Shown one piece after another: positions 1,614-34,037 of a stretch of 36,271 nucleotides of DNA. The notes beneath the pieces were generated by a model. It searched no databases. It worked only from the letters and a program-made list of their open reading frames with translations, and was not told where the DNA came from. The position numbers and the translations under genes are program-made. The DNA is from a virus (Duplodnaviria; Heunggongvirae; Uroviricota; Caudoviricetes), in IMG/VR virus record IMGVR_UViG_2695420676_000012; one strand, given 5' to 3'. Position 1 is the stretch's first letter, and every line of letters starts with the position of its first letter.

Positions 1614-1653
1614 GCCCCTATCGTTATAATACGCGGTAGGGGCGTTTTTGTTT
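1614..1653 (+). terminator. terminator-like hairpin plus T-run
   Basis: 'gcccctA...Taggggc' inverted repeat followed by 'gtttttgttt'; overlaps the TTG-initiated extension of the recombinase ORF. Confidence 0.4.
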
Positions 1654-1662
1654 GGAAATGGT

Positions 1663-3342
1663 ATGAAAACTAAACTGTATTCGTATATTCGCTTCTCGTC
1701 TATGCGTCAGAATGATGGTTCGAGTTATGAACGACAAATCAGGATGGCGAGAGAGGTTGCGGCAAAGTATGACCTTGAACTGGTAAATGATTATCAGGAT
1801 CTGGGTGTATCTGCGTTTAAGGGTGCTAACTCCAAAACAGGGGCGCTATCTCGTTTCCTTGATGCAATAGGTAGATCCGTTCCTGTTGGTAGCTGGCTAT
1901 TCATCGAAAACTTGGACCGTTTATCCCGTGCCGATATTGTCAGTGCGCAGGAGTTATTCCTTTCAATCATCCGTAGGGGGATAACCATTGTTACTGGCAT
2001 GGATAACAAGATCTACTCGCTGGATACTGTTACCGCTAACCCGATGGACCTGATGTTCTCCATCCTTTTATTCATCCGTGGTAATGAGGAAAGCCAGACT
2101 AAGCGCAATCGTACTAACTCAAGCGCACTGATTAAGATTAAAGCCCATCAAGAAAATCCCCAGAATCCGGCAGTGGCAATCGAGGAAGTTGGAAAGAATA
2201 TGTGGTGGACTGATACCACTTCCGGTTATGTGTTGCCTCATCCTACATACTTCCCTGTTGTTCAGGAGATTGTGGAATTACGGAAGAATGGACGTTCAAC
2301 CGCCGAGATACTGGATCACCTTAACGAGACATATACACCGCCACCAGCGGTTAGTAATAAGAAGCATTCAAAATGGTCACGGGCAATGGTTGAAAGGTTG
2401 TTCCATACCCGCGCTTTGATTGGTATCAAGGAGGTCTCTGTCGATGGTGTTAACTATGAGTTAAAGGATTATTACCCTCGTGTTATTGATGATGCTACGT
2501 TCTATCACCTTAAGAAAAATATTGGTGCTAGAGCATGGAACTTTGGAGACAAGGAAGAAGTTAAACCGATCCCCCTGCTTAGTGGTATTGGCCTATTGAA
2601 ATGTGATCATTGCGGTTGCGCTATGGTTAAAGTGAAGGGAACGAACAAACGTTCTGACCAGTATCGTTATACATGTGATGCGACCCGTTCACGTAGACTT
2701 GATTGCGAGCATCCAAACTGGAGTTTTCGAGGTGATCAATTAGAGAAAGCTGTATTGCAATTGCTGGCTGATAAAATCTGGATTGCTGAGGACAAGGCTA
2801 ATCCGGTTCCGGCGTTGAAAGTACAGGTTGATGAAATATCACGCAAGATTGATAACCTGATTGCCCTTTCTGCTATGACAGGAGCAACGAAGGAGTTAGC
2901 CGATCAGATTACTACCCTCAATAGCGAGCGTGAAACACTCTACAATCAGATCAAGATGGCAGAAGAGGAAATGTATTCTGTGGACTCTCAAGGCTGGGAG
3001 AAGCTCGCAGAATTTGATTTAGAAGATGTTTATAACGAGGAACGACTAAAGGTCCGGTTTAAGATTAAGCAAGCTCTAAAGCGGATCGGGTGTAGCAGGA
3101 TTGACAGGAATAAAAACTTGTTTGTACTGGAATACATCGATGGAAAGACCCAGAGAGTTGTAATAGAAAATTCAAGAGGAACGAGGAAAGGACAAATCTT
3201 TGTCGATTTGAAAACTATCAATGATAGGCAGATTCTGGAGAGTAACGGGCTTGTTTTGCATCCATGTTTAGACATGCTGACAGATAAGAACTGGAAACCA
3301 GAAGAGGAAATACCAGGTCCATTACAGGAATTTGGAATTTAA
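1663..3342 (+). CDS. large serine recombinase (integrase/resolvase family)
   Basis: N-terminal resolvase catalytic motifs 'YIRFSSMRQ' and 'GVSAF...LFIENLDRLSR'; downstream Cys cluster 'CDHCGCAM...YRYTCD...LDCEH' (zinc ribbon) and coiled-coil segment; track ORF opens at 1648 with TTG, first ATG at 1663. Confidence 0.8.
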   Translation: MKTKLYSYIRFSSMRQNDGSSYERQIRMAREVAAKYDLELVNDYQDLGVSAFKGANSKTGALSRFLDAIGRSVPVGSWLFIENLDRLSRADIVSAQELFLSIIRRGITIVTGMDNKIYSLDTVTANPMDLMFSILLFIRGNEESQTKRNRTNSSALIKIKAHQENPQNPAVAIEEVGKNMWWTDTTSGYVLPHPTYFPVVQEIVELRKNGRSTAEILDHLNETYTPPPAVSNKKHSKWSRAMVERLFHTRALIGIKEVSVDGVNYELKDYYPRVIDDATFYHLKKNIGARAWNFGDKEEVKPIPLLSGIGLLKCDHCGCAMVKVKGTNKRSDQYRYTCDATRSRRLDCEHPNWSFRGDQLEKAVLQLLADKIWIAEDKANPVPALKVQVDEISRKIDNLIALSAMTGATKELADQITTLNSERETLYNQIKMAEEEMYSVDSQGWEKLAEFDLEDVYNEERLKVRFKIKQALKRIGCSRIDRNKNLFVLEYIDGKTQRVVIENSRGTRKGQIFVDLKTINDRQILESNGLVLHPCLDMLTDKNWKPEEEIPGPLQEFGI

Positions 3343-15510: not shown

Positions 15511-15981
15511 TTAGAGTTTCTGGAAAACAGCTTGTTTAACCGGAGCACCATCTACTACAAAGGTGAAGGTACGGCCTACTACAGTATCCTCACCACCAGT
15601 CATGGTAGTTTTAGACAGGAAGCCGTTATAAGCGATATGTACACCAGATTTTTTCGTAGCGTCGATGTAGTAAGCAATTTTAAGCTGTACGCGCTTACCG
15701 TCTTCGGTTGCTTTAATCAGTTTTTCGTGTACTTCGTTACCCGGCATGTAGTTGATCGAAAGTTCGATATCCGGTACAGACATACGACCAACCAGCTTAC
15801 GGTTATACGGACCACCGAAGTTAGGAACATCGACAGTAGAACGTTCTACACCAGTTTCCGGGAAAGCCGCACATTCTGGAATTTCCAGATAGCTTTCACT
15901 GTCAAGATCGGTGTTAGTTACTTCTTCATGCAGAAACAGACCAACGAGGCCACCAGAAAAAATATCAAATTTAGTAGTCAT
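15511..15981 (-). CDS. major tail (tube) protein, lambda gpV N-domain-like, 156 aa
   Basis: Position just upstream of the chaperone pair; strongly biased high-expression codons; 'ELSINYMPGNEVHEKLIKATEDGKRVQLKIAYY' resembles the gpV 'MPGEQG...YKIRF' region (recollection); own terminator. Confidence 0.6.
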   Translation of the reverse strand: MTTKFDIFSGGLVGLFLHEEVTNTDLDSESYLEIPECAAFPETGVERSTVDVPNFGGPYNRKLVGRMSVPDIELSINYMPGNEVHEKLIKATEDGKRVQLKIAYYIDATKKSGVHIAYNGFLSKTTMTGGEDTVVGRTFTFVVDGAPVKQAVFQKL

Positions 15982-16645: not shown

Positions 16646-16942
16646 TTAAAACTCCATGAATTTAAAATATTCAACACCACCTTCACCCCCTAAACCAAAG
16701 GAGACGGTGCAGCCAGCAGGAACAAACGAATTTATAGTAGATCCCCAATTGGTCCCACCACGACGACGAGCAACGGTCAAACCATCTACGTTAATATGTG
16801 CATCAGACCACCCACCACCAGCATTATGACGCATTACAGCGACACCAGCACGAGCAGTACCATAGCCGTTAGGAATATCAAATACATGCCATTTTAAAGC
16901 ATCGATTTTAGTATTAATTTCACTACTTACCCAATATCCCAT
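16646..16942 (-). CDS. small glycine-rich protein, paralog 1 of 3 (98 aa)
   Basis: Motifs 'FDIPNGY', 'GGGW', 'TVSFGLGGEGGVEYFKF'; SD 'AAGGA' before ATG. Confidence 0.55.
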   Translation of the reverse strand: MGYWVSSEINTKIDALKWHVFDIPNGYGTARAGVAVMRHNAGGGWSDAHINVDGLTVARRRGGTNWGSTINSFVPAGCTVSFGLGGEGGVEYFKFMEF

Positions 16943-16980
16943 ATAAGAATCCTTAGCGGAGATTTCTCCCCGCTTTCCAA

Positions 16981-19900
16981 TTACCCTAATTTAGCTTCAA
17001 TTGCAGCAAGACGTTCACGAAGAAGTTTATTTTCTTCGCTCATTTCTTGGACCGCTTTAATTAAAAGCGCGTTCACTGCGGAGTTTGAAATTGTTAAAAT
17101 TTCTTCTGGGTTATCAAGACCACCAATTTTTGCGGTTTTAACAGCTTCCGGTAATACCTCTTGTAAATCCTGTGCGATAATACCAATCTCATGACCTATA
17201 ACTTCTCGGTCATTAAGAGATTTAACTTTATCGTAGGTTTTAACTTTGAGTTTATTTACCTTATCCACCGCATTTTCTTCGTAATCTTCAACATTAATTT
17301 TCAGACGACCATCGGAACGAATATAAACATCGTTAAAGTTACCATTACCAGGAGAATAGAAAGTACCATCATGATGAAATTCAAACACCGCTTGAGGATG
17401 ACCAGCCGCTGGCGATGCCTCCGCAGATCCAACGCGAATAATTGCTTGCCCCCAATTTTGAGGAACACGACGCATACCAAAATCGACGGCAGTTGTATAC
17501 CCTTGATTGGTGATTAAACTTCTTCCTTTAATAATTGGATAATAGCTATCTGGTCCTACATAACCATGATCGACAAATATCGGCGCTTCTAATCCCCATT
17601 GATCGCCCCAACCTCCAGATTGGCTAGCAGTCCAACGTTCACCATGAACATAGAATCGAACGTTATTGACATGAGTCATTTCGACACCTTTTGGACTTAG
17701 CGCGATATCACCCGCGTTTGTAATATTGATAGCAGCATTAGTAGCATAGCTATAGAACGCTAATCCATTATCAGCACCACCTTTACCGATATACCAGTTG
17801 TTATTATCAGCACAAGTACCCAGCAAATATATAGACGAATCACCCGTTTCGGCATTCATGACGATTGCGTCAGAACCACGATTAACTTTAAGTTTCCCGA
17901 AGAAGGTGTTTTTAATGGTATTATCACCCAATCGTTCAAATTCTGCGAAAAATCCTTTTGAGTCACGAAGACTTAAAACGTTATTTCGACCTGTATTGCT
18001 TGCCCCCCAATGGACGAGTTCCATATAGTCCATAGATTGACGAGAACCAGCTTTAAAGAAAAGGTTGTCTTCAAGACGGGTACTACCATCAATTCCGAGA
18101 TGCAAACAACGAGCGGTTGCAGTACCACCTAAATACAATCCACCGTCCGCAAAATCATAGCTGAATGGTCTGCGATTATTCCAACTACCAAAAGAATCTT
18201 TTAAATCGGTAGTAAGAATATGGAAGCTAGAACCATCATTGCGTAAAATCAAACCATAGTTACCACCTTTGACAGCCAAACGAGCATTTTCAGATAATGC
18301 AACTTCGCTATTCATTACAATTTTCTGGCCTTTACCGCCAGTAATATGCAATTCACCATCTTCAATCAGGTTTATAGAGTTTTGACCGTTATCGTTCCAC
18401 CAAATAAAATCTTTGGTTGTTCCATCACCAAAACCAAACCAACCATTACGAACATCTTGTCCAGTGCGATAATCCATGAAATTAAAATGACTTGATTCGT
18501 TTGGTCCTCGACGAATATCAATACCAGAATTTCCAGTAACACCGCCATCCAATGTTAATTTCTTGACATGTAACCCGGATGTTGCTGTCAGCAATAATTC
18601 CTGATTTGTATCTTCGTATCCAGTAGCAAGACGATATGCGTTATCATCAACTGTCTCATGCCAGATAGTGGCAGGAGCAGAACTACGGAAGCGACGCAAC
18701 ATTTTCTTAGCATTTGTTTGCTGTTCGTTCAAATGCTCAATGTCGTATTGGCCTTGATGGTTTCCAGCAAAATTTAACGTTCCACGGTTGCTAAAGTTAT
18801 TGAACGATGAAATGTTAAGAGCATCAAAAATTTCATCTGCAACAGGTTTTTCACCACCCAGATATTCAGGAGTATCCAACAGGTTTAAAGAAACACCACC
18901 GGAAGAAACTTGATATTCTGCTAAAACAAATCCTGTATGTGCACCGTAGTAAGCGTAAAGATCGTAATTGTCGCCATCGGTTGGAATAGCGCAAAAATGT
19001 TGTTCATGATGCCAAATAGTATAATACGCATTGAATACAACACCTTTCGGGCTATTGTTGCCGCATCGAATCACCAATTCGATAATATTGGCTTGTCCAT
19101 TATGTCCTACGTTATAACCGTTACCACCAACCAAACGGATCTTAGCCGTGCGACCGTGTTGTTGTGGCATTGTCAAAGTGCCTAGTTTAAACCAACCACC
19201 CTCGATACCAAAATTAAGCGTCTTCTGGAACAGTCGGTCAATTTCTGCTTTCGAATATGCGCCAATTTCAGCCGGAGTAGGTTTATCACCTTCATGATAC
19301 ATGCGGTGAGAATATGCCAAATGTCCCAATTCATCATAGCCGTATGTTCTTACCGTATGAACCGGATTAGACCCATAAGTGAACTCAAAACCACGAGCAT
19401 GATTAACGCCGGATGGGTGCGGAACATGCAAGATCATTGCAATATGACCCGCCAGGTCATTCATGCGAAATGCACCAAAGTAATCAAGATTAAGAGCACT
19501 CGGATCATCAAAAGGGTTTGCGGTCTTAGACAGCAAATAGCCATCAGTGCAAGTGTTTACGTGCTTTTTGATGTACTTGCCATCACTTGATCCATCGGCT
19601 GCATCAATACGGCTTTCTAAACGTGCAAGTTCGGAATCAGTGTAAGACTTGTTATTGTCAACTTTGCTATGAATTGCTGAATTTTTGGCTTCAACATCAC
19701 GGGTTAATGCTGCGACGTTATCCGCTGCCTCTTGCTTATTGGCTGCAATCACACCAGTAAGGTTATTGTAGGTGTCAGTTAACTGATTTTCCGCATAGGC
19801 GTGATTTGCTGCGATAGTGCGGTCAGTTTCTGCCTTAATCAAATCAACTTTGTCATTGATTGCTTTGTGATTGCTTACGATGGTTGCATCGGTACGGGAT

Positions 19901-20391
19901 TTAATATCATCAACTTTTTTATTGATGCGGGTGTCCAGTTCCTGAGTTGCTACAGCAGCCGCATTTTTATTAGCGTTGATGGTATCCGACAATTCAGCTT
20001 TAACACCAGCAAGATCGGAAGCAGCTTTATTTTTATTGGCCTCGATTGTCGCGTCGGTTTCGCGTTTAATTACATCAACTTTATTGTTAATTTCTGCGTG
20101 ATTTGCTGCGATGGTTGCATCAGTAGTTTGTTTAATTTCATCTACTTTAGCGTGAATATTGCGGCCATTTACTGCAATTGTGCTATCCAATTCTTGTTTG
20201 TTAGCATCAACTTTAGATTCTAGTGCCGCGTGAGTTTCAGGAGAAACAGAGATTTGAACTACTTCATGATCTCGGTCTTTGGTAAAAATAACATGGTCTT
20301 TAAGGTTGATTGCTACCTCACCGACCTGTAATTGTTCCGGCGTTGGCTTTTTGCCAGAAACATTAGTTCGTTTAAATTGGATTGATTGCAT
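16981..20391 (-). CDS. tail fibre with C-terminal intramolecular chaperone (peptidase S74-type) domain, 1136 aa
   Basis: C-terminal 'SDGRLK...GIIAQDLQEVLPEAV...LLRERLAAIEAKLG' matches the autoproteolytic chaperone module of T5 L-shaped fibre / endosialidase-type fibres; N-terminal ~22-aa 'KVD.IK..TDATI.ANH' repeats; SD 'GAGGTGA'. Confidence 0.8.
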   Translation of the reverse strand: MQSIQFKRTNVSGKKPTPEQLQVGEVAINLKDHVIFTKDRDHEVVQISVSPETHAALESKVDANKQELDSTIAVNGRNIHAKVDEIKQTTDATIAANHAEINNKVDVIKRETDATIEANKNKAASDLAGVKAELSDTINANKNAAAVATQELDTRINKKVDDIKSRTDATIVSNHKAINDKVDLIKAETDRTIAANHAYAENQLTDTYNNLTGVIAANKQEAADNVAALTRDVEAKNSAIHSKVDNNKSYTDSELARLESRIDAADGSSDGKYIKKHVNTCTDGYLLSKTANPFDDPSALNLDYFGAFRMNDLAGHIAMILHVPHPSGVNHARGFEFTYGSNPVHTVRTYGYDELGHLAYSHRMYHEGDKPTPAEIGAYSKAEIDRLFQKTLNFGIEGGWFKLGTLTMPQQHGRTAKIRLVGGNGYNVGHNGQANIIELVIRCGNNSPKGVVFNAYYTIWHHEQHFCAIPTDGDNYDLYAYYGAHTGFVLAEYQVSSGGVSLNLLDTPEYLGGEKPVADEIFDALNISSFNNFSNRGTLNFAGNHQGQYDIEHLNEQQTNAKKMLRRFRSSAPATIWHETVDDNAYRLATGYEDTNQELLLTATSGLHVKKLTLDGGVTGNSGIDIRRGPNESSHFNFMDYRTGQDVRNGWFGFGDGTTKDFIWWNDNGQNSINLIEDGELHITGGKGQKIVMNSEVALSENARLAVKGGNYGLILRNDGSSFHILTTDLKDSFGSWNNRRPFSYDFADGGLYLGGTATARCLHLGIDGSTRLEDNLFFKAGSRQSMDYMELVHWGASNTGRNNVLSLRDSKGFFAEFERLGDNTIKNTFFGKLKVNRGSDAIVMNAETGDSSIYLLGTCADNNNWYIGKGGADNGLAFYSYATNAAINITNAGDIALSPKGVEMTHVNNVRFYVHGERWTASQSGGWGDQWGLEAPIFVDHGYVGPDSYYPIIKGRSLITNQGYTTAVDFGMRRVPQNWGQAIIRVGSAEASPAAGHPQAVFEFHHDGTFYSPGNGNFNDVYIRSDGRLKINVEDYEENAVDKVNKLKVKTYDKVKSLNDREVIGHEIGIIAQDLQEVLPEAVKTAKIGGLDNPEEILTISNSAVNALLIKAVQEMSEENKLLRERLAAIEAKLG

Positions 20392-20464: not shown

Positions 20465-21298
20465 TCAGTATTCCCCGAAGTCGATCCGGTCATGGATAGA
20501 AACGGCTTCAATCTCGGCTGGTGTCGGTTTTTCTTCCGTGGAATACACTTTCACCCATCCAGAATTACCGTCTTTCTGGACTGTGCGAACTCGTAAACGT
20601 GGTGCGCCGGAAGCGGTGCAAGTTAATTGCCATCCTCCATCTTCATTAGGTTGAACGTGAATTAGTGAAGTATCAGCACTAAATGGGTTAGATGCGCTCG
20701 ATCCCTGATAGGTTACGAAACGGTTTCCGGCTAATGCTTCGCTATCAATCGGACCCGTGAATGGATTTACACCAGCACCCAAACCAAAATCACCTTGACG
20801 TAAGATCCGGCCTTCGGTGGCAATACCACGGTCGAGAATCCCACCATCAGGATCTAATTTAAATTCGATGGTAGTAACTTTGTTATCGCTACCACGGGTT
20901 TTGTGTGATGTGACGTATGCATCAAAAATGACGTAGTATCCTGTGTTAGCAGCACTATAGCCAGAGTTCACAACATAGAACATACGGAAGCGTAAAGGGG
21001 TTTTATCCTCTACCGCTTTCATCAACATTGCTTGATGTTCATCATCCAGAACACGGTTTACTGTGAGTGTTGTTGATTCAAGTTTACGATAGCCAGCCAA
21101 CTTACCAGTAACATCATGGTCATATTCTTCTAACGTCTGGATCTCTGTGGATTCGGTTATCGTCGGAAATGCTGCGATGTTCTCGATAGGACTAAATGCA
21201 GGATCGAAAAAGTCCGGCTGGTTATCCACCATAGTAGACACGGAGACTTCAACATGCGACCCCGTGAAAATGTCTAAGTTATCTTGTGTAATATTCAT
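20465..21298 (-). CDS. tail tube-like / neck structural protein, 277 aa
   Basis: Weak gpV-like pattern ('TLTVNRV...LRFRMFY...YVIFDAYVTS...TTIEFKL'); C-terminal 'KPTPAEIEAVS..DRIDF' also found in the tail fibre; SD 'AAGGGGT'. Confidence 0.4.
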   Translation of the reverse strand: MNITQDNLDIFTGSHVEVSVSTMVDNQPDFFDPAFSPIENIAAFPTITESTEIQTLEEYDHDVTGKLAGYRKLESTTLTVNRVLDDEHQAMLMKAVEDKTPLRFRMFYVVNSGYSAANTGYYVIFDAYVTSHKTRGSDNKVTTIEFKLDPDGGILDRGIATEGRILRQGDFGLGAGVNPFTGPIDSEALAGNRFVTYQGSSASNPFSADTSLIHVQPNEDGGWQLTCTASGAPRLRVRTVQKDGNSGWVKVYSTEEKPTPAEIEAVSIHDRIDFGEY

Positions 21299-22004: not shown

Positions 22005-22036
22005 AGTTACCCCCCTTTATGGAGTATTTACATACA

Positions 22037-22062
22037 AAAAAGCCCCACCATTAAGGCAGGGC
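22037..22062 (-). terminator. Rho-independent terminator after the capsid gene extension
   Basis: Minus transcript 'agcccugcc-uuaau-gguggggcu' followed by 'uuuuuu'. Confidence 0.45.
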
Positions 22063-22068
22063 TAATTA

Positions 22069-22200
22069 TTATTTTGCTTTAGTCTTACGTTCTTTTTTAA
22101 CTGTGGCTTTCGCCGTAACCTCTTGAACTTCTTCTTCCTGAGATGGAATCAGATTTTCTTCCCCCAAATCGGGGGAAGGTTCAGAAGGTTCTACAGGAGT
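22069..22200 (-). other. in-frame 43-codon open extension after the capsid gene UGA stop (possible readthrough product)
   Basis: Manual translation after TGA: 'TPVEPSEPSPDLGEENLIPSQEEEVQEVTAKATVKKERKTKAK' then TAA TAA; no ATG/GTG start or SD inside. Confidence 0.3.
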
Positions 22201-24201
22201 TCATTCAGCGGAGATGTGAAGAACTTTCAGGGCTTCCGGCTGTGCTACAACGTAGTCCAAATCTACAAAGATACGAGGCACTACCGCACCACGATCCCTA
22301 TATGTAGTTAGATCCATGTCGAGTTCCAGACCTCCCCACTCACCGATAGTAATACCGGAGAAGTCACCCAGAACGATGTGGTCTGCCGGGATAACGCCAG
22401 AAGTAACTACTTCGTAACCAGCCAGTTTGCCGTTTTCGATGATATAACCGGAAACGCCGTTATCTTTCAGGGTAGATTCCAGTTCAGCAGCAGTTGCACC
22501 GCTCATTGCAAACTTGATCGCCTGAGCAGGAACGCCAGCGTCGGTCAGTGCTGCAATTTCTTTCAGGAAGTCTTTATAAGAGAAAGCAGCTTTCTTGGTA
22601 ACGCGGCTAGCGTCTACCAGTTGCTTAACCAGACCAGCCGGACCACGAGCATTTTCTTTATCAGACAGAATCAGTTGTTCCAGTTTGATACGAACAGCTT
22701 TGTTAATGTGATCAGTGATCAGGGTAGCGATGCCCGGAACGGTTTTCAGCGACTGACGGCTGATCGGGTTGCCACCAGCAAAAGTTTTCGGAGACAGTTT
22801 CACGTTCGCAAATTCAGCTTTGCTTTCCGGTGCAGCACCGTTTTCATCAACGAAGCCGAAAGCGTCAACGCTGGAAGCGGTCATTTTTGGAATAGCGGTC
22901 GGGGAGTTCAAGCCACTGTAAACAGTCACACCCAGACGACCCAGAACAGATTCCGGCATCAGCATTTCGATGTAGGATTCAGTCATCAGTTTTTCGTCAG
23001 TTACAGCGGTCAGAGTAGTTTTGGTGTTACCATCAGCAGCAGCACGCAGAGCAGCAGCCGGAACGAATACAGAGCCACCACGAGCAGCACGACCACGCTG
23101 CATCGCAGCACCAGCAGCCATAGAGGAATATTCAGCTTCGTTAGCACCCAGAGCAGCACCATCTACCAGAGAGCGAATTACGTTGTTCAGGTCAAAAGTT
23201 TTTTCCATTTTAGAGTCCTTAATTTGTTCGTTATTACGTTGAGCATTGACGAGATTATTTAGTGCCTTAGTGCGGAATGCTTCCGGCGTCATGTCTTTAA
23301 TTGCCAATGCGCGTTTCAATTCTTCGTCATCAATATTTAGTTCGCGTGCAATTTCGCGAATTTCTAATTCGTCTTCTTCGGAACGTTCAGCCACTTCTTC
23401 GATTTTTTCTTCTTCAACCGGAGCAGCTTCACGTTCTTCTTTTATTTCTTCTTCCCGAACAGTTGAACTATCATCATCAACACTTTCAGGATGTTCAGCG
23501 TCTTTTCCGTCTTCGAGATTTTCATCTTCTTTATTCTCTTCAACTTGGCGCTCTTGAGTTTCTTCAACTTCCGATTCTTTAATTTCTTCTACCGGAGTTT
23601 CTTCAACCTGAGCGGATTCTTGTTCTTCTTTGATTTCTTCAATTTGTTCTTTAGTCATATCGCGTTTAGCCTCCAAATTAACTGTGATAGTATTTAGAGA
23701 GCGATTTAAACCGACCGTATCGTCAGCAGGAACGGTGACAAATGAGAGTTCATAGGGCGCCCACTTAGTAACAATCAATTGCCCTTTGGCGTAATCGATG
23801 TGATATTCTTTAATGTCATAGCCGACAGAAATTTTTTCCATCGTACCTTCAATGACTTTATTGCGAATATCATTAGCCAAAGTGCCATGCTTAGAGAATT
23901 TAACCAGAGCACGACCTACGTTATCCGCATCGATTCGAGCGTCGCAGACTACACCTAAATGATTATCGAAATTATGATTGAACAGCAACGGAGCGTTATT
24001 ATTCAGACGAGACAGATCAACCGCTTCCGGTGTATGTACCAGAATTTCATCTAGTACCACCATCTCTTGATTTTGCTCATCCCAGAATTGGCGCTGATAC
24101 GGCTGTTCACTGGAGAAAGCAATTTCAAATTCGTATTGATCGTTATGCCCTTCGTTAATAACTCCACCGTAACCGTTAAGATCGCGGCGAAATTTAAGCA
24201 T
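22201..24201 (-). CDS. prohead protease (HK97/S78-like) - acidic scaffold-like linker - major capsid protein fusion, 666 aa
   Basis: N-terminal ~160 aa ends with protease-like 'ELSFVTVPAD'; E/D-rich linker (~residues 180-290); C-terminal ~350 aa Ala/Gly-rich capsid-like domain; between portal and connector genes. Confidence 0.7.
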   Translation of the reverse strand: MLKFRRDLNGYGGVINEGHNDQYEFEIAFSSEQPYQRQFWDEQNQEMVVLDEILVHTPEAVDLSRLNNNAPLLFNHNFDNHLGVVCDARIDADNVGRALVKFSKHGTLANDIRNKVIEGTMEKISVGYDIKEYHIDYAKGQLIVTKWAPYELSFVTVPADDTVGLNRSLNTITVNLEAKRDMTKEQIEEIKEEQESAQVEETPVEEIKESEVEETQERQVEENKEDENLEDGKDAEHPESVDDDSSTVREEEIKEEREAAPVEEEKIEEVAERSEEDELEIREIARELNIDDEELKRALAIKDMTPEAFRTKALNNLVNAQRNNEQIKDSKMEKTFDLNNVIRSLVDGAALGANEAEYSSMAAGAAMQRGRAARGGSVFVPAAALRAAADGNTKTTLTAVTDEKLMTESYIEMLMPESVLGRLGVTVYSGLNSPTAIPKMTASSVDAFGFVDENGAAPESKAEFANVKLSPKTFAGGNPISRQSLKTVPGIATLITDHINKAVRIKLEQLILSDKENARGPAGLVKQLVDASRVTKKAAFSYKDFLKEIAALTDAGVPAQAIKFAMSGATAAELESTLKDNGVSGYIIENGKLAGYEVVTSGVIPADHIVLGDFSGITIGEWGGLELDMDLTTYRDRGAVVPRIFVDLDYVVAQPEALKVLHISAE

Positions 24202-24246
24202 TTAATCACCTTTAATTAATTGGGGACATTGCGCCCCCGTTGGTTA

Positions 24247-25758
24247 TTAGGGATCGGCTGGGGAATTTTTTTCTTCACCCTCGCCATTAACGATAATATT
24301 TAGTGCGCTCTTTTCGGCTTGAATCTCTGAGAATACTTTTTCAGGATCATCACCACGTTCAAGAATAACGGCAGTACGTGATTTAAGTCCGTTATCAATT
24401 AAAGCAATCTCGGCGCTTACGTCTTTAAATGGATCGACGGATTCAAAACGCGGACGAATAATAGTAGTGTTATCGATAATATGCGGAATTGCAGTAATAC
24501 GAATCGGAACAATACCACGCGCGGAATAATGGCGTAGATATGCTTCGAAAATTGGCAATACCACTGTTTCAATCAATTTGTTTTGCAGTGCTTTAACGCG
24601 GTGTCGTTGCATTAAATCACCGAATCTACTGGCGCTGTAATTTATTTGGCTAGTGTCACCAGTCAAGCCCTGTTTAAACACGCCTAAGCCCATCGCGACG
24701 CTACCATACATCGCATCGTTAAAGGATTTGAAATCATCACCGCTTTGCGTCGCCTGGATGCTCTTGATCGTTGCCCCTTCCGGTAATTCCTGAATAGTAC
24801 CAGGTGCAAAATCCTGTACTACTTCCGGCGCTTGATATTGTTCATCATCTTCACCAGTATCAAAATCGTCACCAGAATCTTTCGGACGCTCGATAAAGCC
24901 CATAGAGCTAGCTGCAATGCGTTTCTGGATAATTGCAGTTTCGCGGAATGCGTCTTGATGTGCGATATCCTTAATCACTGGCAGGAAGTCAGTCACACCA
25001 CGCAGGGATTCGGCGGTAAGTGGTTGATAGTAATGGCATACTTGCGATGCTTCTACACGATAGTTATCACCTGTGTAAGTCTGAGTCAGTAGGTTGACTT
25101 TACGAAACCAGTATGCTACGGGCTTCATTGTTTCTACGTCATACTCGATCCCCTGATAGATCGCACGTTCTTTGCTTACTTCACGGTTGAGCGTCCAGTC
25201 GCACTTATCAGCAGACAGGATAGAAACATTTAACTCATTGTTTTCTTTGGTTAAAACTATGAAGCACTCACCACCCATAACGCGCTCACGTTCAGCCATT
25301 ACCAGCAATTCACGGAAGTTAAAACGACCATTGCGAGAGAAGCGTTTAGCATTCTGCGCCCACTTCCAGAAAGCATTCTCGATCTGCTTATTCAGTGCGC
25401 TATCAAGTTTTCCATTTGGTTTAACAACTGACGGCTTCGGATCTAGGCCAGTACCTACCACCATATCGGTGATGTATTGCGTGTAGCGACTGCCTACGGA
25501 AGTGTTTAAGGCCAGAGTACGACCCTGATCATAAAGGCGCTTACCATTCGATTTGAGAGCCTTATTGAAGGTTCCTGTAATGGTGTCTTGTTGAAGTGAT
25601 CCATCAATACGATCACCAACCAGTCCTAAACTACGAGTCGCCAGAGATTTCTGGAATTTTTCTACTTGCTTATCGATGAAAATTTTTGGTTGTTGCTGGC
25701 GGTGATTAGTTTTAACTGGAGTTTCTACCGCCTTTTTGCGTCGAAAAAGATTAAACAT
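24247..25758 (-). CDS. portal protein, 503 aa
   Basis: Size and position between terminase and the protease/capsid gene; SD 'AAGGGGT'; no motif independently verified. Confidence 0.65.
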   Translation of the reverse strand: MFNLFRRKKAVETPVKTNHRQQQPKIFIDKQVEKFQKSLATRSLGLVGDRIDGSLQQDTITGTFNKALKSNGKRLYDQGRTLALNTSVGSRYTQYITDMVVGTGLDPKPSVVKPNGKLDSALNKQIENAFWKWAQNAKRFSRNGRFNFRELLVMAERERVMGGECFIVLTKENNELNVSILSADKCDWTLNREVSKERAIYQGIEYDVETMKPVAYWFRKVNLLTQTYTGDNYRVEASQVCHYYQPLTAESLRGVTDFLPVIKDIAHQDAFRETAIIQKRIAASSMGFIERPKDSGDDFDTGEDDEQYQAPEVVQDFAPGTIQELPEGATIKSIQATQSGDDFKSFNDAMYGSVAMGLGVFKQGLTGDTSQINYSASRFGDLMQRHRVKALQNKLIETVVLPIFEAYLRHYSARGIVPIRITAIPHIIDNTTIIRPRFESVDPFKDVSAEIALIDNGLKSRTAVILERGDDPEKVFSEIQAEKSALNIIVNGEGEEKNSPADP

Positions 25759-25768
25759 GATTTACCCC

Positions 25769-26266
25769 TTATCGCGTAAGACGTAATTTGATATTTTTAA
25801 TCGGGCTAATTCCCTGTTTACGTCGTTCGGCTTGAATTAATTTAGACAGTTGACGTTCATAATCGACTTTTAGAGTCTGGAGAACAGCCAATGACTCATA
25901 GGCGAAAGTATTCCCTTTCACTGTCATTGCTGATAATGCGGCTTCGTCCCCAGATAAACGGGCGAAAATAACTTGCTCGATTAAGGCGATAGTTTCCCGC
26001 AGATATTCTTTTTTGGATTGTTTGGCGAATACTGGTAAAACAGTTAATTCCTGCATTGATATCAGTTCTTCTTCCAAAGTTATTACGATGGTATATTTAC
26101 CTTCGGCAAAATCTAAGGTTTTAATCTCGTGATTAGCCGGAGTATCATCAACCTGATAAATGATACCTTTATTATTATTTCCTACCTGAATTGTTACACC
26201 CTCTTCATTCGCCAGCGTGATTTTTTCGCCTTTACGAATTACTAAGGGAATTAGTTCTAAATTCAT
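25769..26266 (-). CDS. hypothetical protein between terminase and portal, 165 aa
   Basis: ORF with SD 'AAGGGGT'. Confidence 0.5.
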   Translation of the reverse strand: MNLELIPLVIRKGEKITLANEEGVTIQVGNNNKGIIYQVDDTPANHEIKTLDFAEGKYTIVITLEEELISMQELTVLPVFAKQSKKEYLRETIALIEQVIFARLSGDEAALSAMTVKGNTFAYESLAVLQTLKVDYERQLSKLIQAERRKQGISPIKNIKLRLTR

Positions 26267-26338: not shown

Positions 26339-28246
26339 TTAGAACGATGTTACCCAGCTACGGCCTCTATTTGGGCGTCTGGCGATGTTTTGACGTTGCG
26401 GTCGTGTGATTGGCTTAGTTTCTTCGATTTGCTCGTCAGATTGCGATTCAGGAGCTTTTACGGGTTCTTCTTTAACGCTGTTTAAGCTGTCTTTCATTGC
26501 AATGAGTTTATCCCATGACATTTTTGAAAGGACGTAGCGAGAAGCAGCATAGCTATAAACCAGACAGTCGAGAGCCTCGTTTCGGGTACTACCTGGATTT
26601 TTCACCCAACGAACACCAGTAGTAGTACGCTTGATGGATTCACTCAAAAGCTGATCGAGATAATCATCAGGAACGGTTTCTGATATTTCTAAGCCAATAT
26701 GAGGATTATCTTTCAGGTTTCTAACCAGCATTTCACGAACAGCGGATTTACCAACGTTAACGCCCAGCATAAGCAATTCATGACCACCTGTGCGGGTAGG
26801 TTTAACCGGAATCACTGGAGCATTACCAGATGAACTACCTTTAATAGCGTGTAGGTTCTTCCACTTACCACAAATACGGTATCCGGCTTGAGTGAATCGA
26901 CCGTTTGATGTATCGAGGAAGCTGGCGAGCATTGGCACACGTTCACCATTAACGTTATAGAATTTGGTTTTCTTGAAGTTAACCAGACGATCCCATACAG
27001 GTGATTCGTATCGTTCACAGTTATGATCGTAAAAGCTACGGTGATCCAGAATGTAAACCTTATCTTTCGCTACACCTAAGATGGTAGATTCTGCGCGATC
27101 CAATTGCTGGTCAATTCCTGAGCACAAGAAAATCACGTCATCAGGGATATTCTCGATAGAAACATCTGTTTTGAGTTGTTCCAGTTCATTTGCTTCTACT
27201 GCCGTGTCCTGATCATCGTATACCTTGCCTAACACGGTGTTATAAAATGATTGTAAATCAAAGGATTGCCACGCATGACTAAAATCAACCACACAAGCGC
27301 GGATCGTGCTGAAAGGTGAATACAGACGGCTAATCCAGAATCCTGCTACTTCACTTTCACGGGTTGCTCTCCACTCGCCTTGCGCTACTGCCCTGATTCG
27401 TTCCCCTTCTGTCCATGCGTTCTTACAGTGGGGGCAAATATAACGAGCGGTATCAGGATCGGGTAAGTTCTTACCATCGATGTTACGCCATTCAAATTGA
27501 ACGTTTTCCCACTCGATCACCTGGTGTTCCCCGCAATGAGGACACGGAACAAAAAACATACGCATATCGCTTGATAACCATTGCTGGTTAATGCTTCCGA
27601 GCTTACTGGTCGGGGTACTGGATACGACTAATCGGCCTTCATCGCCAAAGGTAGTTAAACGGTTAGCAGCCAGTGCCACCGGATCACCTTCTTCTGAGGC
27701 TGTAGCAGCATCGATTTCGTCTAGTAGTCCGACCTTTGCGGTCTTACCACGTAGGGTCGATGGACTGGTTAGCGATACCATGTACAGGAAGTGATTCGTT
27801 TTTAGCTGTAGCTGGTTATTGTTGTTAACCGCATTGCGATCATTCTTGTCTGTAACCACGTCTTTTAATGCATCACATGCTTCGATAGACGGTCGGATCT
27901 TACCAGCGAGATATTGAGACATTTCTTTAGCGGTTGATTGTCCGATAATCATATTGCATGGATCGTTAGCCATCTGGTTAAACAGGATGCCGTTCAAGAT
28001 GGTAGTCTTTCCGATCTGCGCACTGGTCATCAGAACATACTTTTTCTTGTTCTCAAGGAAAGGAGCATCAATCATACCTTTCTGGAATGACAGCAATTTA
28101 ACTTTATCCCCAGCTTGAGGACCATCTACCAGCACCATATTAGCTTCGCACCATTCAGAAGGAAGGAGTTTAGGCGGTGGCGTAATATATTTGGCTGCAT
28201 TTCTGAGAATCTTTTTTAATTTGGCCTTATTAGAAATTAGTTTCAT
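26339..28246 (-). CDS. terminase large subunit, lambda gpA family, 635 aa
   Basis: Walker-A-like 'AQIGKTT'; 'PCPHCGEHQ' and 'YICPHCK' zinc-finger-like motifs; 'GIDQQLDR'; '[14 protein letters not shown]'; order and spacing match gpA as I recall it. Confidence 0.9.
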
Positions 28247-33074: not shown

Positions 33075-34037
33075 ATGTTATTTTCCGCTAACTTTTTCAC
33101 TAACGAAGTAACCAACGCTAAAGCAGTTATCAAATTTGGCACCGAAGCAAACAAGAAGATTCAGCCGAAAGTTGTTGCTCATGTTTCCTTTGCGCAGCAG
33201 AAATCCGCTTTCGCTGGCTTTAAAGCACATCGTGAAGCACTGATCGCGGCTGGCTTTGGTGTTGACGGTAAACTGCCTAACGGCATTCGTAAAGCAATCG
33301 ACCGCGTTAAACCTGCTAAAGACGTTGCAGTAGACCACATCGTTACTTTCACCGTTAAGAACTCTTCTGAACTGTTCCACCTAGTGATTGCTGGTGATAC
33401 TGCTATCGTTTCCGCTCCTAACATGGATTTTCAGGATACCGCTGATTGCAACATTACCTTTGGTCGTCGTAAAGAAGTTACCGGAAAAGCTAAACTGAAC
33501 TTCACCAAATCCGGCAATCCTTACTTTGCTGTATTCTTTAACAGCCACGCTACTGAGAAAGAAGTAGTAGAACTGGTTGCATATGAAGGTGAAGAAAAAG
33601 CACGTATTGAATCTTGCGACGCTTTCGTAGAACTGGAAGCACAGGTTAATGCTGTTTCTCCGGTTGCTGTTGAAGATCGTTTCTCTGCACTGGAAGCACA
33701 GATCGCAGAACTGAAAGCTGCACTGAAAGAAAAAGACCAGATCATCGAAGCACAGAAAGCTGAGATTGAAGAACTGAAAGCTAAAGAAGTTGCTCCGGTT
33801 GCTGTTGAAGCAGATCAGGAAGTTGAATCTAAAGACTTCTTTACTCAAGCGGTTGAATCTAAAGACAAACAAGCTCTTTGGATTCTGCTTAACGAAAAGC
33901 GTACTGTTGCAGACGTTGCAGAATGGAACAAATACCTGATTAAGAAAAATGGTTCTTCCGTTCAATTCATCGATTTAATGACAGTTAAAGTTTTTGATGC
34001 GTTCGAAAATGTGTTCGACGTTCGCAAAGCAGCTTAA
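33075..34037 (+). CDS. hypothetical abundant protein with coiled-coil and internal 'SPVAVE/APVAVE' repeat, 320 aa
   Basis: Strong high-expression codon bias (ctg, cgt, gct, gaa, aaa); SD 'GGAG'; downstream of the consensus promoter. Confidence 0.6.
   Translation: MLFSANFFTNEVTNAKAVIKFGTEANKKIQPKVVAHVSFAQQKSAFAGFKAHREALIAAGFGVDGKLPNGIRKAIDRVKPAKDVAVDHIVTFTVKNSSELFHLVIAGDTAIVSAPNMDFQDTADCNITFGRRKEVTGKAKLNFTKSGNPYFAVFFNSHATEKEVVELVAYEGEEKARIESCDAFVELEAQVNAVSPVAVEDRFSALEAQIAELKAALKEKDQIIEAQKAEIEELKAKEVAPVAVEADQEVESKDFFTQAVESKDKQALWILLNEKRTVADVAEWNKYLIKKNGSSVQFIDLMTVKVFDAFENVFDVRKAA

Follow-up and report, generated by a model that had tools for sequence, protein, structure and literature searches.

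Tailed-phage proteins in which an S78-family prohead protease, a variable linker or scaffold and an HK97-fold capsid protein share one open reading frame (ORF) are already known and catalogued (PHROG 617 and 4523, PAJU2 gp03, Nocturne116 ORF18, phiHAP-1, R4C, ep3, FoX and PPpW-3), and their genes follow those for the terminase, W-like protein and portal. SEA-PHAGES labels the same architecture 'major capsid and protease fusion protein'. In the Pseudomonas phage PAJU2, gp03 is a 'prohead protease fused capsid protein' and was termed a 'capsid polyprotein', as quoted in PMC8306868; in Lactococcus phage Nocturne116, ORF18 comprises protease, putative scaffold and capsid protein, of which the last begins at residue 243 in its mature form (PMC13595954). 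The gene described here shares this architecture and genomic position. It occupies 22201..24201 (-) of IMG/VR virus record IMGVR_UViG_2695420676_000012, a stretch of 36,271 nucleotides (nt) that is referred to below as the window and is an E. coli prophage. It differs from the known fusions in its unusually long acidic, disordered stretch, in a putative start at codon 332 and in a sharp step in codon usage, the latter two being specific to the E. coli lineage and its nearest relatives. Descriptions of the known fusions, that of PAJU2 in its quoted form, mention no internal translation starts. The present analysis adds the suggestion, favoured here with moderate confidence on the strength of sequence comparisons, that the gene works as a nested gene set and not as a single polyprotein. 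No report of internal initiation in protease-capsid fusions was found in the literature consulted, which did not include an older survey of prohead protease genes, so an earlier description is possible.

Two other arrangements resemble this locus in part. HK97 (gp4/gp5) and RcGTA (g4/g5) share with it the protease family, the capsid fold and an N-terminal scaffold domain of the capsid protein that is removed by the protease, but their protease and capsid proteins are separate genes, whereas the protease ORF of the E. coli prophage has no stop and is continuous with a full capsid subunit. Entry of the HK97 protease into the shell is reportedly mediated by a non-covalent targeting signal at its C-terminus. 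In lambda C/Nu3, Mu I/Z, herpes simplex virus (HSV) UL26/UL26.5 and HFTV1 gp17/gp17.5, the long form consists of protease plus scaffold and the short form derives from an internal in-frame site, as is proposed for the prophage by inference; however, the capsid protein is a separate gene in each of these, whereas the nested frame proposed here would include the capsid protein and possibly two internal starts. The lambda (S49-like) and herpesvirus (assemblin) proteases also differ in family from the S78 protease of the prophage. In all four systems, the short form is produced in excess, so that initiation, and not gene fusion, sets the ratio. Phage P2 similarly combines protease and scaffold in one self-processing polypeptide, gpO, the capsid protein gpN being separate from it. 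The nested products of HFTV1 were shown by ribosome profiling, while P2 gpO is made only as the full-length protein (both in bioRxiv 10.64898/2026.09.13.751334).

Internal ribosome-binding sites and codon usage

The gene is a single uninterrupted ORF of 666 amino acids (aa) with an ATG start and a TGA stop, as seen in the ORF list and the sequence. The reading frame and its three potential initiation sites are as follows:

22201..24201 (-): whole ORF, comprising protease, acidic spacer, helical scaffold and HK97-fold capsid protein (full-length match to PHROG 617)
24206..24213 (-): Shine-Dalgarno-like AAAGGTGA for the codon-1 start (ATG 24199-24201), 5 nt upstream of the ATG (from sequence)
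23656..23676 (-): internal ribosome-binding site 1, TTGGAGGC (23669-23676) with ATG codon 182 (23656-23658); predicted 485-aa scaffold-capsid product
23206..23222 (-): internal ribosome-binding site 2, TTAAGGAC (23215-23222), 7 nt, then ATG codon 332 (23206-23208); predicted 335-aa product

Nested genes have an in-frame internal start with a ribosome-binding site downstream of the protease, and this combination was found at both codon 182 and codon 332. The Shine-Dalgarno (SD) sequence at codon 1 formed an anti-SD duplex of only -4.3 kcal/mol, with an average local mRNA fold (45th percentile). The duplex at codon 182, just after the protease, was -9.3 kcal/mol in weakly folded mRNA (92nd percentile). 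At codon 332 it was -5.8 kcal/mol; the spacing there is near-optimal, and the mRNA is at its least structured (97th percentile).

A strong SD sequence and in-frame ATG followed the protease in all of the relatives first examined (7/7), which had 24-41% identity. The positions of such sites in the window and in related phages were:

window: codon 182, GGAGG
DCP80: codon 180, TAAGGA
ep3: codon 216, GAGGA
KA2-1: codon 212, AGAGGA
PPpW-3: codon 224, GAGGG
phiHAP-1: codon 152, GAGGA
R4C: codon 189, GGAGGA

The sample was enlarged with 80 further IMG/VR loci, reduced to 44 representatives with <70% identity, and a site was scored when an in-frame ATG with an anti-SD duplex of <= -5 kcal/mol lay 25-75 codons past the W-x-P-x-E-x-S motif. 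Post-protease sites were observed in 34/44 representatives, compared with 4/44 and 0/44 in the other two frames and 1-12/44 in equal-sized, in-frame control windows. Of 42 first ATGs after the protease, 31 (74%) had a strong SD sequence, whereas the share among 1354 other ATGs was 12%; this was a highly significant excess (Fisher p = 3e-19). When the codons of the upstream peptide were redrawn synonymously, the observed SD sequences paired more strongly than the redrawn ones (-5.3 against -3.1 kcal/mol, p = 8e-6), and the same test applied to control Met codons downstream produced no effect. The peptides flanking the post-protease start were not conserved among relatives; therefore, the conserved object is the ribosome-binding site. 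Alleles of the E. coli gene with a swapped protease module had GGAG, 8 nt and GTG at the position of codon 182, and two independent fusion lineages also had a post-protease SD sequence and ATG, namely PAJU2 gp03 (AGGAGG, codon 197) and Nocturne116 ORF18 (AAGGA, codon 145). Retention of the site across such deep divergence argues that it is used.

These data bear on a rather unlikely alternative, that of a pure polyprotein, according to which all subunits would be translated from codon 1, protease, scaffold and capsid protein would be made 1:1, and the N-terminal ~394 residues would be self-cleaved; the internal sites would then be relics of an ancestral capsid gene, or pause sites that do not initiate. 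The frame is unbroken in every allele and relative, as expected of a polyprotein. However, a relic site within an unconserved linker should decay, and this one persists in relatives with only 24-41% identity and has been kept by three fusion lineages that are separate from one another; synonymous codon choice, too, maintains it.

Codon usage changed abruptly within the gene. The codon adaptation index (CAI), calculated with E. coli weights according to Sharp & Li 1987, rose from 0.32 (aa 1-170) through 0.41 (aa 171-331) to 0.69 (aa 332-666); values for the other genes of the window were between 0.21 and 0.50, except for the major tail protein (0.61) and an orphan gene (0.66). Leu was encoded by CTG in 25/30 instances in the capsid part but 5/23 upstream, and Asn by AAC in 11/12 and 6/24 respectively. 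The fraction of optimal codons, computed without Glu and Lys, was distributed as follows:

aa 1-181: 0.41
aa 182-269: 0.49
aa 270-331: 0.31
aa 332-394: 0.82
aa 395-600: 0.77

The maximum likelihood change point in codon optimisation fell after codon 328 (support 321-351), and the step was found at the same place in 6/6 alleles, among them alleles whose protease module differs. Were selection for accuracy responsible, a step would be expected at the boundary between order and disorder, or at the mature N-terminus; both candidates were rejected, as the step occurs at codon ~329 and not at ~270 or ~395, and so lies inside the folded helical prodomain. Near the step, TAAGGA, 7 nt and ATG were kept in two alleles despite a differing peptide (NKEQI versus KDSK). 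From the step in codon usage, the codon-332 product is suggested to be the most translated form, although codon bias is only a proxy for the relative translation of the protease and the 3' part. Codon bias was weaker in the protease than in the capsid part for 37 of the 44 representatives, when equal segments of 160 codons were compared (median effective number of codons, Nc, 41.9 against 36.8, p ~1e-6), and 160-codon segments from the two halves of the capsid part showed no difference in bias. In DCP80, a codon step was located at codon 189, with a support interval (175-224) that includes Met180. Uniform translation of a polyprotein leaves unexplained both the weaker bias of the protease part and the steps at internal ATGs.

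The step at codon ~329 might instead be a recombination scar, left when a capsid module was acquired from a phage better adapted to the host, such that the codon-332 SD sequence was the former start of that module. Alleles of the gene are indeed mosaic, the protease module having been swapped in two of them (L003 and L011); the CAI of C-terminal patches varies from allele to allele, and synonymous divergence (dS) between segments of the gene varies sharply, from 0.034 to 0.60. Against this, the position of the step is the same in 6/6 alleles whichever protease module they carry, and it coincides with an ATG and a well-spaced SD sequence that are conserved over two different peptides; furthermore, the donor capsid gene would need a start at that very Met, which amounts to the same functional start. 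A scar was thus considered a very improbable explanation.

Short products, if any, would arise by translation and not from a separate transcript, since no sigma-70-like promoter was found inside the gene on either strand (3.7 expected by chance). UL26.5 of HSV, in contrast, has its own promoter.

Several observations weigh against internal initiation. At codon 182, GGAGG and ATG are separated by 11 nt, which is longer than optimal, and a strong SD sequence with ATG was missing from the scored window in 10/44 relatives. A family-wide second start before the conserved F/Y-S/D-L...R-A-L motif was rejected because only 6/19 scored relatives had one, and the codon-332 site is consequently specific to the closest clade. 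Recombination contributes to codon heterogeneity, given the mosaic alleles and the low CAI of the last 60 codons, and the CAI values depend on the weights adopted. PAJU2 (as quoted in PMC8306868) and Nocturne116 ORF18 (PMC13595954) were described as self-cleaving fusions, in agreement with a pure polyprotein. Lastly, no protein, ribosome-profiling or N-terminal data were found for the prophage or for any family member, and initiation at the internal sites is inferred from sequence statistics.

Proposed expression and assembly

Nested expression could have originated most simply if an HK97-like protease gene lost the stop codon that separated it from a downstream delta-capsid gene, the ribosome-binding site of the capsid gene being kept. 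Initiation at codon 1 would then produce a 74-kDa protease-spacer-scaffold-capsid form as the minority product. This form would co-assemble as an ordinary capsid subunit and bring the protease, attached by a long acidic tether, into the procapsid, and the protease would be targeted by its covalent continuity with a capsid subunit, instead of the C-terminal targeting peptide of HK97. Initiation at codon 182 would yield a protease-free scaffold-capsid protein equivalent to HK97 gp5, and RcGTA g5 is likewise a counterpart of this predicted product. In this E. coli lineage, initiation at codon 332 would yield a 335-aa precursor whose prodomain is reduced to its last three helices. The shorter products would form the majority and serve as bulk subunits, and the ratio of protease to scaffold to capsid would depend on how strong the ribosome-binding sites are relative to one another. 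Once the shell has assembled, all residues N-terminal to ~aa 395 would be removed by the protease (H76/S125), and a ~29-kDa HK97-fold shell protein would remain.

An earlier, sequence-only reading of the locus had observed the three-part polypeptide correctly, and its interpretation is partly supported. It held that protease, scaffold and capsid would be delivered in fixed stoichiometry, which is probably wrong, as the conserved internal SD sequence and ATG (34/44 relatives, p = 3e-19) suggest that protease-free short forms are made. Were every subunit translated in full, ~415 copies of the 44-kDa N-terminal part would by our own estimate place ~18 MDa in a T=7 shell, which is dense but not impossible.

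The proposal may be extended to protease-capsid fusions of tailed phages generally. These would be nested gene sets with a retained capsid ribosome-binding site, bearing the protease on minority full-length subunits with protease-free subunits in excess; the E. coli lineage would make three co-terminal products (from codons 1, 182 and 332), corresponding to lambda C, Nu3 and E in one frame, with stoichiometry determined purely by initiation rates. The case for this wider statement is evenly balanced. If internal starts are used, hundreds of phage 'capsid polyproteins' would be nested genes, and the protease-scaffold scheme of lambda, herpesviruses and HFTV1 would extend to the capsid protein itself; this would explain how these phages avoid having one protease per subunit. 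A rule for annotation would follow, namely to check for an SD sequence and ATG right past the S78 domain. An inducible E. coli prophage would provide a clean experimental system for testing these predictions. For the engineering of HK97-type shells, the long form would represent natural cargo targeting, with cargo fused upstream of minority subunits.

Domains of the fused protein

The four parts of the protein were delimited as follows:

23704..24141 (-): S78-family prohead serine protease, aa 21-166 (Pfam, predicted structure, invariant residues)
23392..23691 (-): acidic, predicted disordered spacer, aa 171-270 (composition, structure-model confidence)
23020..23391 (-): helical, delta-domain-like scaffold, aa 271-394 (structure model, family profile)
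22204..23019 (-): HK97-fold major capsid domain, aa ~395-666 (Pfam, Foldseek; presumed mature N-terminus)

The sequence-only reading had described a single polypeptide in which an HK97-type prohead protease of ~160 aa is followed by an acidic, scaffold-like linker and a capsid-like C-terminal domain. The single polypeptide was borne out by the 666-aa ORF at 22201-24201, with a frame kept in 11/11 copies, and so was the N-terminal protease. Peptidase_S78 (PF04586) matched aa 40-162 with 40.0 bits (cut-off 21), and the protease part ends in WAPYELSFVTVPAD at aa 147-160. H76 (23974-23976), S125 (23827-23829) and E151 (23749-23751) were invariant in alignments of 47 and 48 diverse homologues, H76 and S125 representing the conserved catalytic His and Ser of the S78 family. 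An AlphaFold2 (AF2) model based on 46 diverse homologues had a mean predicted local distance difference test score (pLDDT) of 78.5 and included a confident, beta-rich domain at aa ~21-166; this N-terminal domain has the assemblin/prohead-protease fold. The HK97 gp4 equivalog TIGR01543 was not reached (35.1 bits, cut-off 59), and the relation to HK97 gp4 is one of family-level similarity and not of equivalogs.

At the other end, the capsid-like domain was confirmed by a match to Phage_capsid (PF05065) at aa 407-662 (93 bits, cut-off 24) and by structural comparison. The top Foldseek match was 8gta, from R4C (E = 1e-18), followed by HK97 entries including 1ohg (E ~1e-11 to 1e-12), and the matches also included D3 and RcGTA/GTA capsids. 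In the AF2 model, helices occupied aa ~275-389 (pLDDT 82-94), with a floppy stretch at aa ~392-406 and a confident domain from ~407 to the C-terminus. With the family profile, the helical region aligned to the RcGTA major capsid protein from residue 45 on, ahead of the HK97 fold of that protein; hence the helical region is regarded as a homologue of the delta domain. Cleavage to the mature protein probably occurs near aa 392-406, a placement based on the floppy stretch of the model, on the start of the R4C chain (residue 1 of PDB 8gta_A is the equivalent of aa 397) and on analogy with Nocturne116. The protease part and its processing were not discussed in the paper on the R4C structure.

The description of the linker as acidic held, 52 of the 120 residues at aa 181-300 being Asp or Glu (43%) with a net charge of -37; the scaffold is assigned here to the helical region at aa ~271-394. 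The spacer (aa ~169-270) had a pLDDT <50 and contained short tandem DNA repeats of slippage type. Among nine E. coli alleles, the ratio of nonsynonymous to synonymous divergence (dN/dS) of the linker (aa 171-270) was 0.75, and its dS was 0.034 compared with 0.20-0.60 in the flanking segments; the low dS could reflect a recent recombinational sweep of the module or constraint at the RNA level. Because of its in-frame indels, high dN/dS and slippage-type repeats, the acidic stretch is read as a flexible, negatively charged tether or spacer and not as the scaffold itself.

Profile searches placed the whole protein among the catalogued fusions. The match to PHROG 617 ('major head protein') covered aa 21-661 (E = 2e-94), and PHROG 4523, named 'major head and protease protein', was matched also. 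NCBIfam NF045541 (scaf_prot_MCP2, 'prohead protease/major capsid protein fusion protein') scored below its cut-off (131 against 525 bits, over aa 22-349 only). Since the scores for both NF045541 and TIGR01543 were insufficient, the protein is not filed under either model.

Distribution, alleles and neighbouring genes

Related prophage DNA was present in 64 of 5426 complete E. coli genomes, of which 55 (~1%) had the fusion gene at ~88-96% nucleotide identity. NCBI already has a protein with 100% identity, listed as 'phage major capsid protein [Escherichia coli]'; the annotation pipeline PGAP names the gene 'phage major capsid protein'. Eleven homologous copies were retrieved, namely 10 E. coli prophage alleles and the copy of phage DCP80; they encoded 662-672 aa, and all indels in their linkers were in frame. 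One frame was kept across 78 related loci as well, and 569 relatives were confirmed in IMG/VR. A megablast search of the gene against the phage collection returned no match; relatives there were detectable at the protein level only, the best being DCP80 at 43% identity. With tblastn, the same fused gene was identified in 94 phage records, including phiHAP-1, R4C, RcCronus, FoX1-5, S-CBS1/3, ep3 and PPpW-3, the last labelled 'putative major capsid protein and peptidase U35'. An exhaustive protein search produced 486 clusters at E<=1e-30, and almost all of the 150 best cluster representatives were 565-760 aa long.

This distribution effectively refutes the notion that the ORF is an artefact or pseudogene, formed when two genes were joined by sequencing error or in a decaying prophage. 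Some E. coli genomes do contain disrupted copies, interrupted by insertion sequences (IS) of the IS3 or IS1 family: L002 (E. coli C325), H78 (E. coli FXCREC043) and L098 (GCA_020887765.2). However, intact fused ORFs occurred in at least 44 complete E. coli genomes and in the 486 clusters, as well as in cultured phages with studied virions (R4C, phiHAP-1, ep3 and FoX), and purifying selection was evident from the dN/dS values of the protease (0.16) as well as of the capsid part (0.17-0.23). The IS-interrupted copies leave a stand-alone 'HK97 family prohead protease' pseudogene, and annotation pipelines name the two halves differently. A natural, split version of protease and capsid was sought among close relatives, but the sole candidate (P0144, 297 aa) was an IS3-truncated copy.

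Mosaicism was apparent at both ends of the gene. In L003 and L011, the protease module (aa 1-190) was replaced by a divergent one, while linker and capsid were still ~88% identical; the breakpoint coincided with the joint between protease and linker, and in L003, for which the flank was retrieved, the genes upstream differed too. In the allele of the window, the last ~60 codons (aa 601-666, 22204..22401 (-)) differed from other alleles and had low codon adaptation (0.33-0.45, compared with 0.76 in the allele L008).

The fusion gene lies in a lambda-like head module, preceded by genes for the large terminase (26339..28246), a W-like head-tail joining protein (25769..26266) and the portal (24247..25758), and followed by genes for an FII-like protein, tail proteins, the tape measure and a gpJ-like tip protein. 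No stand-alone gene for a protease, scaffold or capsid protein was found within the window. The region 3' of the stop codon contains one further feature:

22036..22178 (-): two hairpins 3' of the stop codon (sequence and terminator scan)

The first hairpin (22158-22178) has the form CTTCCCCC-GATT-TGGGGGAAG, and the second (22036-22063), identified by the terminator scan, is a stem that resembles a terminator and precedes a T-run. Three antisense ORFs opposite the capsid gene and acidic linker were noted at 22378..23262 (294 aa), 23246..23557 (103 aa) and 23301..23582 (93 aa), all (+); they look like by-products of strong codon bias and GAA-rich repeats, and not genes.

Elsewhere in the window, a large serine recombinase of 564 aa (1648..3342 (+); domains Resolvase, Recombinase and Zn_ribbon_recom) is probably the prophage integrase. 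Lambdoid prophages of E. coli mostly have tyrosine integrases, so the serine type would be unusual. A 320-aa ORF at 33075..34037 (+), on the strand opposite to the structural genes, had a CAI of 0.66, the highest in the window after the capsid domain, and matched nothing in Pfam or PHROG; it is possibly a lysogenic-conversion or 'moron' gene with high expression.

The closest protein-level relative, DCP80 (PQ671644.1; L004, 858-12786), is a 141-kb record classified in the Straboviridae (T4-like). Its left end contains a lambda-like head module composed of terminase, W-like protein, portal and protease-capsid fusion, and sequences of a T4-like phage and of a prophage may have been joined in this record by chimeric assembly.

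The tail fibre gene of the window (1136 aa, 16981..20391 (-)) is unusually placed between the head-completion and tail genes, and its product matched the T4-type 'long tail fiber distal subunit' family. It is situated between two matches to PHROG 158 (major tail protein), of 277 aa (20465..21298 (-)) and 156 aa (15511..15981 (-)), and only the 156-aa gene had high codon adaptation (0.61 against 0.31). About 2.1 kb of the tail fibre gene (window ~16675-18795, a segment that also takes in small ORFs immediately downstream) was 97% identical in DNA sequence to the virulent, T-even-like phage KFS-EC; such identity implies that T4-like phages and a temperate prophage of siphovirus type have recently exchanged receptor-binding modules.

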